Below are positions 18,568 to 23,479 of a DNA stretch of 64,000 bases, in pieces (position 1 is the stretch's first letter; every line of letters starts with the position of its first letter). The stretch covers positions 4,379 through 68,378 of the forward strand of contig JANPMG010000002.1 in NCBI GenBank assembly GCA_031422675.1, in the 5' to 3' direction. A model generated the notes under the pieces. The model was given only the letters and a program-made list of their open reading frames with translations. It ran no database searches and was not told the origin of the DNA. The position numbers and the translations under genes were made by a program. Source of the DNA: Acidimicrobiia bacterium. GTDB lineage: Bacteria; Actinomycetota; Acidimicrobiia; IMCC26256; JAENVU01.

Positions 18568-20328
18568 TCAGCGGAACTTCGGGTCGTCGAGTCCGAAGAC
18601 CTGCCACGTGGTCACCAGGTTGGCGGTCGCGTTTGGCCTTGTGCTCTCGGACGCGATGCACCACGTCTCGCCGGCCGGGATCGTCGCGCTCGTGACGAGC
18701 CCGCCGCCGTCGAACTGAGGATCGACGCACCACTGCACCGGCTGGAACACGTTGCCGCCGCTCGGGTCATAGGTGAGCAACAGGGTGAAGGTGCCGGGTC
18801 CGCCGGCGATCGGTGCCGGGTCGGGTTCGAGGGTCACGAAGCCGCGGTAGGTGACCGACGCAGCGCCGGCGGGCTGGAACAACACCGTCCCGTCGGCCGC
18901 GGAGGCGTCGAGGACGTACCGCTTGCAGTTGAAGGCATCATCGAGCCGAGTGAAGGACCCGCTGATCCCGCCGTCGGTGTCGGTCACCGTGTCGTTGCTA
19001 CAGATCACGGGGAACACGGTGAGGGTCACCGTTGCGACGTTGGACTTGGCGGTCCCGTCGGACGCTTGGTAGGTGAAAGAAGCGGGCCCGGTGTAGCCGG
19101 GCGCGGGGGAGCTCGGCGGCGTGAAGGTCACGGTGCCGTTCGGGTTGGCGACCACGGTCGATCCCGCGGGGCTCACGTTGGCGAAATCGCCGGGCACGAG
19201 CGTGTCACCGTCGAGGTCGCTGTCGTTGCCGAGCACCGGGATCGAGACGCTGCTGTTCTGGTTCACCTCGGCGCTGTCATTCCCGGCGCTCGGAGCATCG
19301 TTGCCCGGGGTGACGGTGACGGCGACGTTCGCGTTGGTGCTCGCGGTGCCGTCGGACGCGGCGTAGGTGAACGAGTCCAGCCCGTTGTAGTTGGTGAACG
19401 GGGTGTAGGTGAAGTCGCCGGTGGACGTGAACGACAGGGAACCGTTGGTGGGTCCGACGATCAGCGCTGCACTGAGGGGGTTGCCGTCCGGATCAGAGTC
19501 GTTGCCAAGGACGTTGCCCGATACCGCGGTGTCTTCGGGGGTTGTGACGGTGTCGGCGGTCGGGGTGGGCGCGGCATTCGACAAGTAGAAGAGCGAGTCG
19601 AAGTTCGTGTTGTTCCCGAAGTCGTTGCTGCCCTCGAGGGCGACGGTTCCCCCCGAAACGGTGGTGAGGGTCACGGTGTCGAAGTTGAATCCGGGTTGAA
19701 CCGTCCACTGGCAGTTGTCGTTCTGACCGCTGTTCGGTCCCGAGCTGTTGGGCGCTGCGCACGCGTCGGTGGTATCACCGGGACTCGAACTGGCGAAGTA
19801 CGGCGCCGAGGTGTCGTAGCCCGCTTCGCTCGATTCGGCGGAGCTGATACTCGTGCCGGTCTGGAGTTGGTAGACGGCGCTCGTTGTGCTGTTCGACAGG
19901 GTCAGTTTCGCGATGGCGTTGCCCGTCAGCTCGAGGTCGAGGCGGACACCGCTGAAGCTGCGAGTGGCGATCCCGGTTCCCGGCTTCAGGCGCAGGCTCT
20001 CGGTGCCGTCGACCTGGGCACACGGGGTGCCGTTGCCGCTGCTGGACGATCCCTTGACTCCCAACGAGTCGGGTCCGAGACCGGGCGCCGACTGGCTCCC
20101 GGTCGAGGTGAGCCGCATCACCGGTTCGGCCGAGTTGACCTTGCAGGAGTTGGAAGCAGTGGTGAGGTTCTGGGTGGTGCTGCCGTACTGGAAGAAGCGC
20201 CCGTCGCTGCCGAGGTGGAGCCGCACCACACTGGGGGCGGCGCTTCCCGCGGTGGCCACTGCGACGCCGGCCGCGCCAGCGACCACCACCATCGTGATCG
20301 CGAGTCGAAGACTGCGGTTTCGAAACAT
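18568..20328 (-). CDS. Secreted protein with cadherin-like / VCBS-type Ig repeats
   Basis: Signal peptide MFRNRSLRLAITMVVVAGAAGVAVATAGSA. There are two repeats of the type TPEDTAVSGNVLGNDSDPDGNPL...FTYTP..GLDSFTYAASDG and VNQNSSVSIPVLGNDSDLDGDTL...FTYQASDG. Confidence 0.85.
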   Translation of the reverse strand: MFRNRSLRLAITMVVVAGAAGVAVATAGSAAPSVVRLHLGSDGRFFQYGSTTQNLTTASNSCKVNSAEPVMRLTSTGSQSAPGLGPDSLGVKGSSSSGNGTPCAQVDGTESLRLKPGTGIATRSFSGVRLDLELTGNAIAKLTLSNSTTSAVYQLQTGTSISSAESSEAGYDTSAPYFASSSPGDTTDACAAPNSSGPNSGQNDNCQWTVQPGFNFDTVTLTTVSGGTVALEGSNDFGNNTNFDSLFYLSNAAPTPTADTVTTPEDTAVSGNVLGNDSDPDGNPLSAALIVGPTNGSLSFTSTGDFTYTPFTNYNGLDSFTYAASDGTASTNANVAVTVTPGNDAPSAGNDSAEVNQNSSVSIPVLGNDSDLDGDTLVPGDFANVSPAGSTVVANPNGTVTFTPPSSPAPGYTGPASFTYQASDGTAKSNVATVTLTVFPVICSNDTVTDTDGGISGSFTRLDDAFNCKRYVLDASAADGTVLFQPAGAASVTYRGFVTLEPDPAPIAGGPGTFTLLLTYDPSGGNVFQPVQWCVDPQFDGGGLVTSATIPAGETWCIASESTRPNATANLVTTWQVFGLDDPKFR

Positions 20329-20774: not shown

Positions 20775-21566
20775 TCAGGCGTTGATCTCGCCGCCGCGCC
20801 CGTGTTTCCAGTAACCGCGGATCGTGCAGTTCGAACGAGGAATCCCGACCTCGTCGAAACAGAACCGACGGATCCGCTGCATCGCCGAGGCTTCGCCGGC
20901 CGCCCAGACCCGACTCTGGACGGCGGGTGGGGCGGACCGCAGCGCGCGCACGAGCATCTCGCCGGGGGACGCGTCGGCGGGGAGATCGAGCCAGGTGGCG
21001 ACGGCGGTCGAGCGCGTCGTGATCGTCATCCGCGCGTCGGGGTGCGCAATCTCGATGAAAATCGATGCGTGAGCGTGCGCCGGCAGTGCGGGTATGACTT
21101 GCATGATCGCGGGGATGGCGGACTCGTCCCCGGCGATCACGAAACTCGTTGCCGTGTGGTCCGCCGTGTAACCGCGTCCCGGTCCCGAGATCGCGCCCGG
21201 CGCGCCCGGCCGCACGGTGGCCGCCCACTCCGACGCGATGCCGTGGCCGTGGATCACGACGTCGAGATCCAGTTCGAGCCGCTCGGGATCGAACGCACGG
21301 GGGGTGAAGGTCCGGATGACGGGCTTGGTGTCGTCGGGGAGGAGGAACTCGTTTCCGCGCCAGGTGGGAATGACGAGCTCGGACGTGCCGGGTGCCGGTA
21401 GCAACAGCCGCACACTGGCAGCCGGCTCATCGGCCGTGAATCCCGCGAGCGCGGCGCCGCGGAGCGTCACGCGCCGGAGACGGGGCGTGACCGGCTCGAC
21501 CCGTTCCACCTCGACCGCTCGGAACTTCGGTGGTGCGCGGCGGACGCGCAGAACGGCGGGAGTCAC
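20775..21566 (-). CDS. Siderophore-interacting protein family FAD-binding reductase
   Basis: GTG 21566 overlaps the upstream TGA as [25 protein letters not shown]...RTFTPR...GPGRGY...[12 protein letters not shown]...VWAAGEAS...RGYWKHG is typical of the SIP family. Confidence 0.85.
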
Positions 21567-22141
21567 GCGTTCGGGTTTGCCTCGGCGAGCGCCTCGAACT
21601 GGGCTCGGACCGTGGCGGCGTCGGGTCGGTAGAACAGCCGGGTGGTGCCGTCGGGTCTGATGAACACCCATGCGGGTTGGCCGCGCACGCCGAACTTCTT
21701 CCAGACCGTGAGATCGAAGTCCGCGCCGTTGGGGAAGTCCAGCGCGTACTTCTTCACGTAGTCGAGCATCGGTCCCTGATCATCACGACCGGCGATGCCG
21801 ACGACTGCGAGCCGATCTCGGTACTGGCGCGCCAACTGCGCGACACCGGGTGCCTCCCGGTTACAGACCGTTCACCAAGGTGCCCAGAACCACAGGGCCA
21901 GGGACTTGCCGGCGTAATCGGCGCCGCGGACCGACGGCCCGGTGACGCCGGGGAGGGTGAAGTCGAGCGCCGCCGGGACCGCCGGTGCCTCGGGAGCCGA
22001 GGTGGGTGCCGAGGTGGGGCCGGAAGCGGGTGCGGAGGACGAGGTCGACGTCCGGGCCGGCTCGCTCTGATCGGTGCCGGCGCTCGACCCGCATGCGGCC
22101 ACCACGAGCGAGGCGGCGACGAGGGTCACGAGACTGCGCAT
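21563..22141 (-). CDS. TlpA/DsbE(Mpt53)-like thioredoxin-fold lipoprotein with an in-frame TGA at the first redox Cys (candidate selenoprotein, or nonsense-mutated pseudogene)
   Basis: ORFs 21872..22468 and 21563..21835 are in the same frame and are separated only by TGA 21874-21872. The joined sequence is MRSLVTLVAASLVVAACGSS (lipobox)...GKSLALWFWAPW[TGA]TVCNREAPGVAQLARQYRDRLAVVGIAGRDD...GVRGQPAWVFIRPDG. This parallels the VLWFWTPWCPFCNAEAP region of Mpt53/DsbE-type proteins. Confidence 0.6.
21845..21861 (-). other. Candidate bacterial SECIS-like hairpin downstream of the in-frame UGA
   Basis: On the minus strand: UGA, acggucugua (10 nt), then ACCGGG-aggca-CCCGGU, a 6-bp stem with a G-containing 5-nt loop starting 16 nt after the UGA. 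Confidence 0.3.
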
Positions 22142-22353
22142 GACGCGAAGTGTAGAGACGATCACCGCGAGCGGGCGCGGTATCGCGCGTACGACGACGC
22201 GGCTGAGGCCAGGTTGTTGTTCATCACCGGCATCGTGCTGATGCTCCTCTGTGTACTTGCGTGTACGGCACCGGTCATCGGAGGACTGTTGGCCGGGTCC
22301 TTCCTGGATCAAGTGGTGTGACCTCTTCGTGTTCGCGGATCCGTCTCGACGGC

Positions 22354-22390
22354 TGGGATGGACGTCACGCCGAGCGTGACGCGAATCCCA
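22354..22390 (+). repeat. 37-nt hairpin-forming direct repeat, copy 1
   Basis: tgggatggacgtcacgccgagcgtgacgcgaatccca, with nested inverted repeats tgggat/atccca and gtcacg/cgtgac. Confidence 0.85.
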
Positions 22391-22514
22391 CACGCGGTTC
22401 GGAAGGGGGGACATTGCCGCGCGCCTGGGGGTAGCTGAAGCCAGTCCTCTGCGCAAAAGGCTCGCCACGGCTGCAGCCTCGTCCGTGCTGGCGTGTCGAT
22501 GCTCGTATTCCGAG

Positions 22515-22553
22515 ATTCCTGTTGGCTAGGACACGTGTATAGCTAACAGGAAT
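22515..22553. promoter_or_regulatory. AT-richer, roughly 39-bp near-perfect palindrome (possible operator or RNA hairpin)
   Basis: attcctgttggctagg-acacgtgt-atagctaacaggaat. The arms match except for one mismatch and one indel, and the core ACACGTGT is itself palindromic. Confidence 0.4.
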
Positions 22554-22572
22554 TCCCGAAAACGGGTGCGCC

Positions 22573-22602
22573 GTTGTGACGCGACCGCGGACGCGTCACA
22601 AC
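22573..22602. promoter_or_regulatory. Perfect 11-bp inverted repeat (hairpin or operator)
   Basis: gttgtgacgcg-accgcgga-cgcgtcacaac. It shares the GTGAC/GTCAC half-site with the 37-nt repeats. Confidence 0.4.
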
Positions 22603-22705
22603 GATCCGCACTCGCCGGCTCGACGTCCGGGGAAGCAGTCCGGGCCCACCGATTCTCGGGTGTGGGTACCGCGGCCCGGGTGTTCGGTGGACCGGTCTCG
22701 GCGAT

Positions 22706-22742
22706 TGGGATGGACGTCACGCCGAGCGTGACACGGATCCCA
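22706..22742 (+). repeat. 37-nt hairpin-forming direct repeat, copy 2
   Basis: tgggatggacgtcacgccgagcgtgacacggatccca. It matches copy 1 at 35 of 37 positions and starts 352 bp downstream of it. Confidence 0.85.
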
Positions 22743-22886
22743 CTCACTCCGTGATGCATCGCAGTGCGCCCGCGAAGCGCGCTCCGAGGTCCACGCGGCG
22801 ATCTGAACACGCTCGAGAACCTCAAGCGCGTGCTCGAAGCCACACCACGGCAGGGCTGACGACCGGCTTCGAGGCGCCGAGGTCCG

Positions 22887-23279
22887 TCAACGCTCGACAC
22901 CAGTTGCGGTCCGCAGCATCGTCACGATCCTGGCGAGATCGAGACGCGTCGCCGCCACGCGCATGACGAGTTCGTAGACGTCGTCGTTCCGGATCGCGGT
23001 GGCTCGAACGCCGTTGAGTTCGAGGAACACTGCGGTGGCCAACCATCCCAGTCGCTTGTTGCCGTCGACGAGGGCGTGATTGTTGACGATCGAGTCGAGC
23101 AGCGCGGCGGCCTTCGTCCAGAGGTCGGGATAGGCGTCGGTGCCGAACGCGGTGGCCTGCGGTCGGGCGGTCGCCGAGCCGAGCAGACCGAGGTCGCGAA
23201 TCGGAGGTGGATCGCCGAGCAGGAGCCCGGCCAACTCGACGACGTCGTCGAGTTCGAGGTACTCGATCGGGCGGGTCAC
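22887..23279 (-). CDS. doc: Doc (death-on-curing) / Fic-family toxin
   Basis: Fic/Doc motif HALVDGNKRLGW, in a 130-aa protein immediately after a small RHH-like gene with a 4-nt overlap. Confidence 0.88.
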   Translation of the reverse strand: MTRPIEYLELDDVVELAGLLLGDPPPIRDLGLLGSATARPQATAFGTDAYPDLWTKAAALLDSIVNNHALVDGNKRLGWLATAVFLELNGVRATAIRNDDVYELVMRVAATRLDLARIVTMLRTATGVER

Positions 23280-23479
23280 TGCCCCAGTCGGTCGAGCGCA
23301 TCGGCGTGCGCACGCGTGACGCGACGGGCGGCGGCGGACACGCGGTCGCGGTGCCGGCCAGCGGCGACGTACGCGCGCACCGCTTGGCGAGCCGCGTCCT
23401 GGAGCGAGATGCCTTCGGCGTCGGCGCGCTCGCGCAGGGCGGATTGCTCGTCGTCGGTCAAGCGCAACGTCATCGCCAT
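23276..23479 (-). CDS. Ribbon-helix-helix (CopG/Phd-like) antitoxin
   Basis: 67 aa, MAMTLRLTDDEQSALRERADAEGISLQDAARQAVRAYV. It has the beta-strand plus two helices of an RHH fold and overlaps doc. Confidence 0.75.
   Translation of the reverse strand: MAMTLRLTDDEQSALRERADAEGISLQDAARQAVRAYVAAGRHRDRVSAAARRVTRAHADALDRLGQ

Follow-up and report, generated by a model that had tools for sequence, protein, structure and literature searches.

An in-frame TGA at the catalytic cysteine position of a thioredoxin-fold lipoprotein gene: a predicted selenoprotein from an Acidimicrobiia bacterium

When a reading frame is closed by a TGA and continues in the same frame behind it, has the gene been broken, has it been wrongly assembled, or is the codon translated? 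The question is raised by a stretch of 64,000 nucleotides (nt) from contig JANPMG010000002.1 of an Acidimicrobiia bacterium (assembly GCA_031422675.1), referred to below as the window, which has a G+C content of 68%. The sequence comes from the metagenome-assembled genome (MAG) of an uncultured organism, a member of Acidimicrobiia and not a mycobacterium: the CspA of the window is identical to a protein annotated 'MAG: Acidimicrobiia bacterium'. Two minus-strand open reading frames (ORFs) within it, 21872..22468 and 21563..21835, share one frame and, as the ORF list and the translation agree, are parted only by a TGA at 21874-21872. A sequence-only reading of the window had taken this TGA, lying where a thioredoxin-like protein has its first active-site Cys, as the mark of a candidate selenoprotein. 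The present analysis supports that proposal: the in-frame TGA is, with a probability of about 0.9, the selenocysteine (Sec) codon of one intact TlpA/Mpt53-like lipoprotein gene. This judgement, made on sequence evidence, is based on Sec/Cys pairing, conservation of the TGA, purifying selection, the size of the family, covarying hairpins specific to the Sec forms, constraint at synonymous sites and published precedent. The gene belongs to an already published predicted selenoprotein family and represents no novel type of system. Apparently new are its occurrence in a high-G+C clade of Acidimicrobiia, a lipoprotein signal in nearly every member, the extent and diversity of the family, the presence of two layouts of the selenocysteine insertion sequence (SECIS) and, within the clade, the coupling to a siderophore-interacting protein (SIP) gene.

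The reading frame across the TGA and its conservation

Read from the ATG at 22141, the minus-strand frame passes only one internal stop, the TGA at 21874-21872, before it ends at the TGA at 21565-21563, and the read-through product comprises 192 amino acids. The translation of 21563-22141 on the minus strand opens MRSLVTLVAASLVVAAC and later reads LALWFWAPW*TVCNREAP. The features of the gene are as follows (L numbers denote loci fetched from other assemblies).

21563..22141, minus strand: complete selenoprotein coding sequence, 192 codons plus stop (ORF list, translation, domain and structure matches)
22091..22141, minus strand: signal peptide and lipobox (MRSLVTLVAASLVV-AAC) with predicted lipidated Cys17 at 22091-22093 (sequence pattern, no dedicated predictor)
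21872..21874, minus strand: in-frame UGA, codon 90, predicted Sec replacing the N-terminal (nucleophilic) Cys of WCxxC (alignment; same codon in L001, L003 and L083)
21863..21865, minus strand: TGT, Cys93, resolving Cys of UxxC (sequence; invariant in 110 of 110 Sec forms)
21674..21676, minus strand: Pro156 of the GQPAWVF loop, predicted and presumably cis-Pro of the thioredoxin fold (aligned with the QPAFVF loop of Mpt53)

With Cys placed at the stop, the protein matched Pfam AhpC-TSA (1.3e-15), Thioredoxin_8 (1.2e-9; 38.8 bits, above the Pfam cut-off of 27) and Redoxin over residues 58-166, a span that runs across the stop. The closest solved structures, by sequence match to the PDB, were Mycobacterium tuberculosis Mpt53/DsbE (1LU4, E=1.2e-27) and DsbF (3IOS, 1.4e-25); these alignments cover residues 58-180 and set the TGA against the first Cys of WCPFC/WCPTC. 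The earlier claims that read-through yields one thioredoxin fold with a lipoprotein signal, and that the stop sits at the nucleophilic Cys of an Mpt53/DsbE/TlpA-type motif, both hold: the Pfam and PDB matches span the TGA, the two structures place it at the nucleophile, and a lipobox can be read from the sequence. The export signal, an N-terminal hydrophobic segment followed by the lipobox VAAC, was recognised purely by pattern match. The Gln of the GQPAWVF loop is almost invariant across the family.

By homology the product should be a thiol:disulfide oxidoreductase that is exported and lipid-anchored and that belongs, among the TlpA-like thioredoxin-fold proteins, to the actinobacterial Mpt53(DsbE)/DsbF branch. 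Mpt53/DsbE (Rv2878c) and DsbF (Rv1677) have the same WFW(A/T)PWCxxC...EAP helix and QPA(F/W)VF loop and are likewise exported actinobacterial thiol:disulfide oxidoreductases, but they carry Cys rather than Sec and the identity is moderate. M. tuberculosis DsbE acts as an oxidant and not as a cytochrome-c-specific reductant. With ResA, TlpA and CcmG(DsbE) the predicted protein has in common the TlpA-like thioredoxin fold, an extracytoplasmic location and WCxxC; orthology to these proteins was considered and rejected, as the scores lie far under the curated cut-offs and no CcdA/DsbD or cytochrome-maturation (Ccm/Res) genes recur beside family members in the survey of their neighbours. No NCBIfam model reached its cut-off, with ResA at 55.7 bits (cut-off 170), TlpA at 35 (230) and dsbE at 30.3 (123), and NF041054, 'ResA-like WAxxUGC motif-containing protein', scored 27.1 bits against a cut-off of 300, the motif here being WAPWUxxC and not UGC. 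Gene callers split the gene, and a fragment derived from NCBI (P0002) stops at ...WFWAPW; an exact look-up of this fragment gave no record.

The same TGA codon, with the frame intact, was found in L001, L003 and L083, the proteins of these three loci and the window being 63-70% identical. L003 ('Acidimicrobiia bacterium isolate OTE_25_metabat_154'), the best syntenic orthologue in the species-representative genome set, and L083 (NCBI GCA_025361725.1) share gene order with the window, with a Fic toxin gene (L083) and GS-like genes upstream and the SIP gene downstream. In L001 the codons tgg-TGA-gag-gtc-tgt lead into an open frame, with cspA next in line; this DNA proved to encode P0084, another predicted protein that ends exactly at ...LALWFWAPW. 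Over the 102 codons 3' of the TGA the ratio of nonsynonymous to synonymous substitution (dN/dS) between the TGA-bearing orthologues was 0.10-0.30, with dS of 0.46-1.12 (Nei-Gojobori), and the downstream sequence is therefore translated and under purifying selection. At the position of the stop, which aligns with the first Cys of WCxxC, motif matches among the fetched relatives carried TGC in 67 cases, TGT in 14 and TGA in five (the window, L001, L003, L083 and L087). As TGA also terminates all eight verified genes around the site, the selenoprotein gene itself included, it is an ordinary stop here and recoding is local to this one codon.

The nearest Cys form, L002, is 62-63% identical, has TGC and keeps the same TV dipeptide (WCTVC). 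Of the seven pairs of the hairpin H2, described below, six persist in it, seemingly as a relic SECIS, which may speak for a recent change from Sec to Cys. The L002 gene (L002:9884-10396) has its lipoprotein signal peptide out of frame with the thioredoxin domain, through either an indel error or a frameshift; the contig name suggests a long-read assembly, and the neighbours are wholly different from those in the window. Another close relative, L093, with a GS-like neighbour of 90% identity or more, has undergone a clean deletion of the selenoprotein gene (L093:3256-3297), which leaves an in-frame remnant, MRRLVVLIAGA-TK-stop, that still overlaps the SIP start.

A wider search scanned metagenome contigs with a back-translated W-F-W-A-P-W-TGA-x-x-C pattern of ~21 specified bases. 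It was found in at least 120 contigs, where by our own estimate fewer than one would be expected by chance, and in 118 of the 120 contigs listed the frame continues for ~85-108 codons with elements of the fold (GRD, QPA(W/F)VF); L107 and L115 were the only apparent chance matches among them. Deduplication left 110 distinct Sec forms with a median pairwise identity of 40% and a minimum of 26%. A signal peptide with a lipobox Cys was recognised, again by pattern match, in 99 of the 106 family members having a complete N-terminus. When a large protein collection was searched with a family profile, the best 120 matches were all full-length and those that were named all belonged to Actinomycetota, which places the Sec forms, by sequence, within the actinobacterial Mpt53/DsbE-DsbF group. 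Among these best 120 matches there were no annotated Sec forms and no useful taxon labels for Sec forms; presumably they are the Cys forms.

The family has a precedent in the 'thiol-disulfide isomerase-like protein' selenoproteins, a UXXC group defined on four Sargasso Sea sequences (Zhang, Fomenko & Gladyshev 2005, Genome Biol 6:R37; PMC1088965). One of these, AACY01523057, reads REVLLWFWAPWuGGCNREAAAVAAL...SSQPSWI in the supplement, with the DNA past its TGA being GGTGGTTGCAACAGGGAAGCAGCGGCGGTCGCCGCTC. Over 122 residues it shares 41% identity with the window protein (BLASTP, E=2e-26, with WFWAPW-U/C aligned), and it has the same WFWAPW-U-xx-C-NREA motif, fold, Sec position and hairpin 3' of the TGA (GCGGC-GGUC-GCCGC). 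Reviews of 2022 and 2026 list the family as pfam13905 / cd02966 (TlpA-like), UxxC, and the window protein has just such a UxxC (W-U-T-V-C) in a TlpA-like/Thioredoxin_8 domain. The published examples are marine, of lower G+C and furnished with a single GGUC-tetraloop hairpin, whereas the window gene belongs to a high-G+C clade, has a layout of two hairpins (H1 and H2) and is coupled to a SIP reductase gene; the sampled portion of the 2005 account mentions neither a lipoprotein nature nor an Acidimicrobiia host. A further sequence in the supplement, AACY01592196 (MVLVDFETDWuTWCDRL), has little in common with AACY01523057 beyond the WUxxC core and looks unrelated to it, so that the family as published is a mixed one; a separate family definition and model may be warranted for the WFWAPWU lipoprotein group.

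Among predicted bacterial selenoproteins no kind is commoner than the thioredoxin-fold UxxC proteins. With the present group, a family whose first description came from marine metagenomes gains a high-G+C clade. Since gene callers split or truncate the gene and no NCBIfam model reaches its cut-off, members in MAGs of Acidimicrobiia and their relatives may go unnoticed or be taken for pseudogenes. With more than 100 diverse sequences and a well-supported SECIS in two layouts, the family could also improve models of bacterial SECIS elements, which are lacking in Rfam.

RNA hairpins downstream of the UGA

The 60 nt past the UGA in the Sec forms fall into two mutually exclusive layouts. In a marine-type class of 63 sequences there is a single hairpin, whose tetraloop, C[GGUC]G, is invariant and occupies nt 30-33 when numbering starts at the U of UGA, whilst in the class of the window (40 sequences) two hairpins abut, H1 (columns 14-19/25-30) and H2 (columns 31-37/43-49), the latter with a loop of the form A-G-(G/U)-U-N at nt 38-42. 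In the window itself they are as follows.

21845..21861, minus strand: hairpin H1, ACCGGG-AGGCA-CCCGGU, 10 nt past the UGA (-9.4 kcal/mol; position recurs in the class of the window)
21826..21844, minus strand: hairpin H2, stem CGCGC/GCGCG (21842-21838 with 21832-21828), loop AGUUG at 21837-21833 (-7.8 kcal/mol)

One of the two layouts was found in 103 of 110 Sec forms as against six of 79 Cys forms, and the GGUC tetraloop hairpin in none of the 79. Covariation in the marine-type hairpin exceeded that of shuffled alignments in the share of cells paired (87.1% vs 69.9%), in doubly changed cells (54 vs 10.6) and in score (0.40 vs 0.11); the corresponding values for H1 and H2 together were 78.5% vs 72.4%, 25 vs 8.3 and 0.180 vs 0.091, with the proviso that the classes were assigned by the presence of the hairpins, which inflates the percentages paired but not the compensatory or synonymous-site signals. 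In neither class did any of 500 shuffles reach the observed values, and the slid controls all fell far below them. The encoded residues, too, are altered by many of the compensatory changes, as where P-A-V-A-E becomes P-S-V-E-E while CUGC/GCAG becomes CCUC/GAGG; RNA pairing has therefore been kept at the expense of the protein sequence. Codon choice points the same way. At codon +10 the conserved Val is encoded by GUC in 107 of 109 Sec forms but in only 29 of 53 Cys forms (Fisher p=5.6e-12), GUC making up 51% of Val codons elsewhere in the same genes; the Ala that precedes it is GCG in 58 of 58; and the Pro before this Ala-Val is CCG in three of 76 Sec forms as against 36 of 73 Cys forms.

Bacterial SECIS elements are described in the 2005 account as stable stem-loops right after the UGA with a small apical loop that contains G (PMC1088965). 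Both H1 and H2 are stable stem-loops just 3' of the UGA with a small G-bearing apical loop. Both also place it within the range of the program bSECISearch, which wants the loop G 16-37 nt from the UGA. In the Escherichia coli fdhF element the apical loop is GGUC, with G23 and U24 critical. Like the fdhF type, the hairpins of the present family are intragenic stem-loops that follow closely on the UGA and carry G and U in a small apical loop, but their loops lie farther from the UGA (nt 30-33 for the marine class, nt 38-42 for that of the window), and in the class of the window an additional helix, H1, stands between the UGA and the loop-bearing hairpin; binding of SelB to them is predicted only.

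Which of the two hairpins would SelB recognise? The sequence-only reading had singled out H1, a 6-bp hairpin 10 nt past the UGA, as a possible SECIS. That hairpin lies at 21861-21845 as described and recurs in position within its class, but the likelier SelB-binding element is H2. The case for H1 as the binding element is that it is the stabler of the two, that its loop has a G ~17 nt past the UGA, that compensatory pairs occur at columns 15-29 and 16-28, and that it begins 10 nt past the UGA, much as in E. coli fdhF. However, only 65% of its cells are paired in any one register, part of the class being shifted by 3 nt so that two registers occur; its loop sequences are many and none is conserved; and it is absent from the larger marine class, so that H1 as the binding element is rather unlikely. 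H2, in comparison, is paired in 89.8% of cells, with compensatory changes at four of its seven pairs (e.g., columns 36-44: GC 28, UA 7, AU 1), and its C-G-closed loop with G then U, C[AGKUN]G, resembles the invariant C[GGUC]G of the marine class as well as the loop of E. coli fdhF. On these grounds we lean slightly towards H2 as the predicted SelB-binding apical hairpin of the SECIS, and H1 may be a lower helix or spacer that sets H2 at a suitable distance.

A tentative extension of this preference for H2, which we consider doubtful as a whole, is that the clade of the window uses a distinct two-helix SECIS in which H2, ~27 nt past the UGA, is brought into range by the abutting H1, that the marine members use the single GGUC hairpin, and that translation of the SIP gene might depend on Sec insertion. 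If true, two SECIS designs would have evolved in one gene family while the peptide REAPxVAxV stayed conserved, and the start of the SIP gene on the stop of the selenoprotein gene (GTGA) would tie a flavin iron-reductase to the supply of selenium.

Selenocysteine weighed against other explanations

The explanation that the sequence-only reading had itself set beside a selenoprotein was a pseudogene, in which a single TGC/TGT-to-TGA nonsense mutation has struck a Cys-type Mpt53-like gene and the frame behind it is decaying. Such an origin could draw on the nearest Cys form, with its TGC and identical TV, on the loss of the gene altogether in L093 and on the treatment of the gene as truncated by gene callers (P0002). 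However, the same TGA stands in four independent assemblies and in at least 118 diverse metagenome genes, no frameshifts or extra stops are present, the low downstream dN/dS is accompanied by near-saturated dS, and the covarying hairpins are a mark of the Sec forms; decay is thereby effectively excluded. Less credible still is a sequencing or assembly error, or a pair of separate genes made up of an N-terminal lipoprotein fragment and a C-terminal fragment starting from TTG 21835. The contig is indeed derived from a MAG, and a TTG-initiated ORF of 90 amino acids exists mechanically, but the identical feature occurs in independent assemblies from different projects (ENA, NCBI, JGI, Logan), neither fragment is a complete thioredoxin fold, the matches to Pfam and the PDB run across the TGA, and the internal TTG start is not conserved.

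Recoding of the UGA without selenium, through hairpin-stimulated near-cognate read-through (Trp or Cys) or a suppressor tRNA, touches the one point on which selection is silent, in that purifying selection downstream proves translation and not the residue inserted, and a further point in its favour is that the window and ~1.6 Mb of fetched loci yielded no Sec machinery. Against this, the UGA takes the place of the catalytic Cys in a CxxC redox centre, the classic position for Sec/Cys exchange, a member of the family has already been classed as a selenoprotein (the Sargasso Sea set), Trp at codon 90 would abolish the redox site, and the nearby genes all terminate at TGA, so that there is no general suppression. 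Recoding of this kind is highly improbable.

There remain observations that weigh against selenocysteine itself, beyond the manner in which the hairpin classes were assigned. Searches by tblastn and ARAGORN, with E. coli SelA, SelB and SelD from NC_000913.3 as queries, found no selA, selB, selD or tRNA-Sec in the 64-kb window or the ~1.6 Mb of fetched loci; the SelB probe gave weak matches only, presumably to other GTPases, and the window has no tRNA genes of any kind. The hairpin region gave no relevant Rfam match, whether at the gathering threshold or with E relaxed to 10, though Rfam covers bacterial SECIS elements poorly. The letters of the H2 loop lie within codons of conserved residues (Q, V/L), so that conservation of the loop alone is no proof of recognition by SelB. 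The deletion in L093 means that the gene is dispensable in some strains, and incorporation of selenium at the UGA is itself a prediction.

Selenocysteine at this codon would imply that the lineage carries the Sec machinery (selABCD) and needs selenium. All 84 complete genomes of Actinomarinales, which are also Acidimicrobiia, have selC, selA, selD and a divergent selB together with ~5 predicted selenoproteins each (bioRxiv 10.64898/2026.04.03.716425), and Actinobacteria are counted among the phyla rich in selenoprotein families (PMC1794560). In a 2026 survey of 244 mycobacterial genomes formate dehydrogenase was the sole predicted selenoprotein (PMC13449736).

From these comparisons we infer the following course of events, in which the inserted residue, the hairpin bound by SelB, export, lipidation and substrates are all predicted. 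The gene would be transcribed into an mRNA that is probably leaderless. At UGA-90 a SECIS inside the coding sequence just downstream would recruit SelB with Sec-tRNA(Sec), H1 at 10 nt past the UGA probably serving as a spacer helix and H2, with its G/U-containing pentaloop closed by C-G ~35 nt past the UGA, probably serving as the SelB-binding apical hairpin. The protein would then be exported and lipidated at Cys17, and outside the membrane the U90-C93 selenylsulfide/selenol-thiol couple would oxidise, reduce or isomerise disulfides of envelope proteins. In selenoenzymes Sec confers a lower pKa, higher nucleophilicity and resistance to irreversible over-oxidation.

Neighbouring genes and the upstream region

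The selenoprotein gene overlaps the gene that follows it, and a promoter-like hexamer precedes it.

21563..21566, minus strand: GTGA overlap of the selenoprotein stop with the GTG start of the downstream gene (GTGA in L083, ATGA in L003)
20775..21566, minus strand: FAD reductase of the siderophore-interacting-protein type (SIP and FAD_binding_9), translationally coupled (Pfam; same arrangement in L003 and L083)
22149..22154, minus strand: TACACT, a -10-like hexamer (TANNNT type) 7 nt before the ATG (within CTACACT common to relatives)

The GTGA overlap with a siderophore-interacting FAD reductase, which the sequence-only reading had reported, is present, and its remark that this is an unusual partner stands for the window, L003 and L083, where the SIP gene adjoins, but as a feature of that clade and not of the family. 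The coupling is missing in L001, where cspA comes directly next, and in the wider family, and L093 keeps the SIP gene despite deletion of the oxidoreductase gene; as judged from these sequences, the partnership is local to the clade of the window and not obligatory. Within the clade, the overlap might make translation of the SIP gene depend on successful Sec insertion.

No partner gene was conserved across the family in the survey of neighbours, in which the choice of ORFs was crude and some were in the wrong frame. In 14 of 69 members a class-I pyridine-nucleotide disulfide oxidoreductase of ~470 amino acids (Pyr_redox_2 and Pyr_redox_dim) lies directly upstream, in many cases on the opposite strand (loci L102, L108, L110, L114, L127, L129 and others); it could be a redox partner or reflect a mercuric/disulfide reductase context. 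Two further neighbours of family members have HMA domains and two have MauE. Genes for large secreted proteins with cadherin-like, Big_9 and CLIPPER repeats occupy 18568-20328 on the minus strand of the window, just downstream of cspA, and have equivalents at L083:14642-18308.

A codon-position G+C filter applied to the window for further selenoprotein genes gave seven TGA sites, none with a redox motif; the filter missed the known case too and is thus uninformative.

Upstream of the gene, the heptamer CTACACT, ending 7 nt before the ATG, recurs at ~12846-12852 in L083, ~5885-5891 in L003 and ~3241-3247 in L093, which suggests a dedicated promoter and a leaderless or near-leaderless mRNA; a scan for the sigma-70 consensus gave nothing at the CTACACT site. 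Farther upstream, at 22887-23479 on the minus strand, a Fic/Doc toxin (130 amino acids) and a ribbon-helix-helix antitoxin (67 amino acids) are encoded with overlapping stop and start, the antitoxin matching DUF6290, NikA and FitA-like models, all under the Pfam cut-offs. This pair lies between peptidase C26/GS-like genes and the selenoprotein gene, an arrangement kept in L083, L087, L090 and L093.

Between the Fic toxin and selenoprotein genes a 55-nt direct repeat occurs at 22337-22391 and 22689-22743, its copies being 87% identical, 352 nt apart and each holding a hairpin, GTCACG-CTCGG-CGTGAC. Between the copies are a perfect 16+16 palindrome and a 25-nt inverted repeat (22572-22603 and 22504-22564), and the repeat region 22337-22743 had no Rfam match. 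L083 has a single copy of the repeat, and the spacer is ~150 nt in L083 and L003 as against 745 nt in the window; the window therefore carries, on the upstream side of the gene, ~530-600 nt of duplicated or inserted sequence. Elsewhere, on a 538-nt ENA contig, the predicted protein P0052 has a GalT-like N-terminus (PF01087) fused to the C-terminal ~60 residues of an orthologue 82% identical to the selenoprotein, and is probably an assembly chimera or a rearrangement breakpoint.

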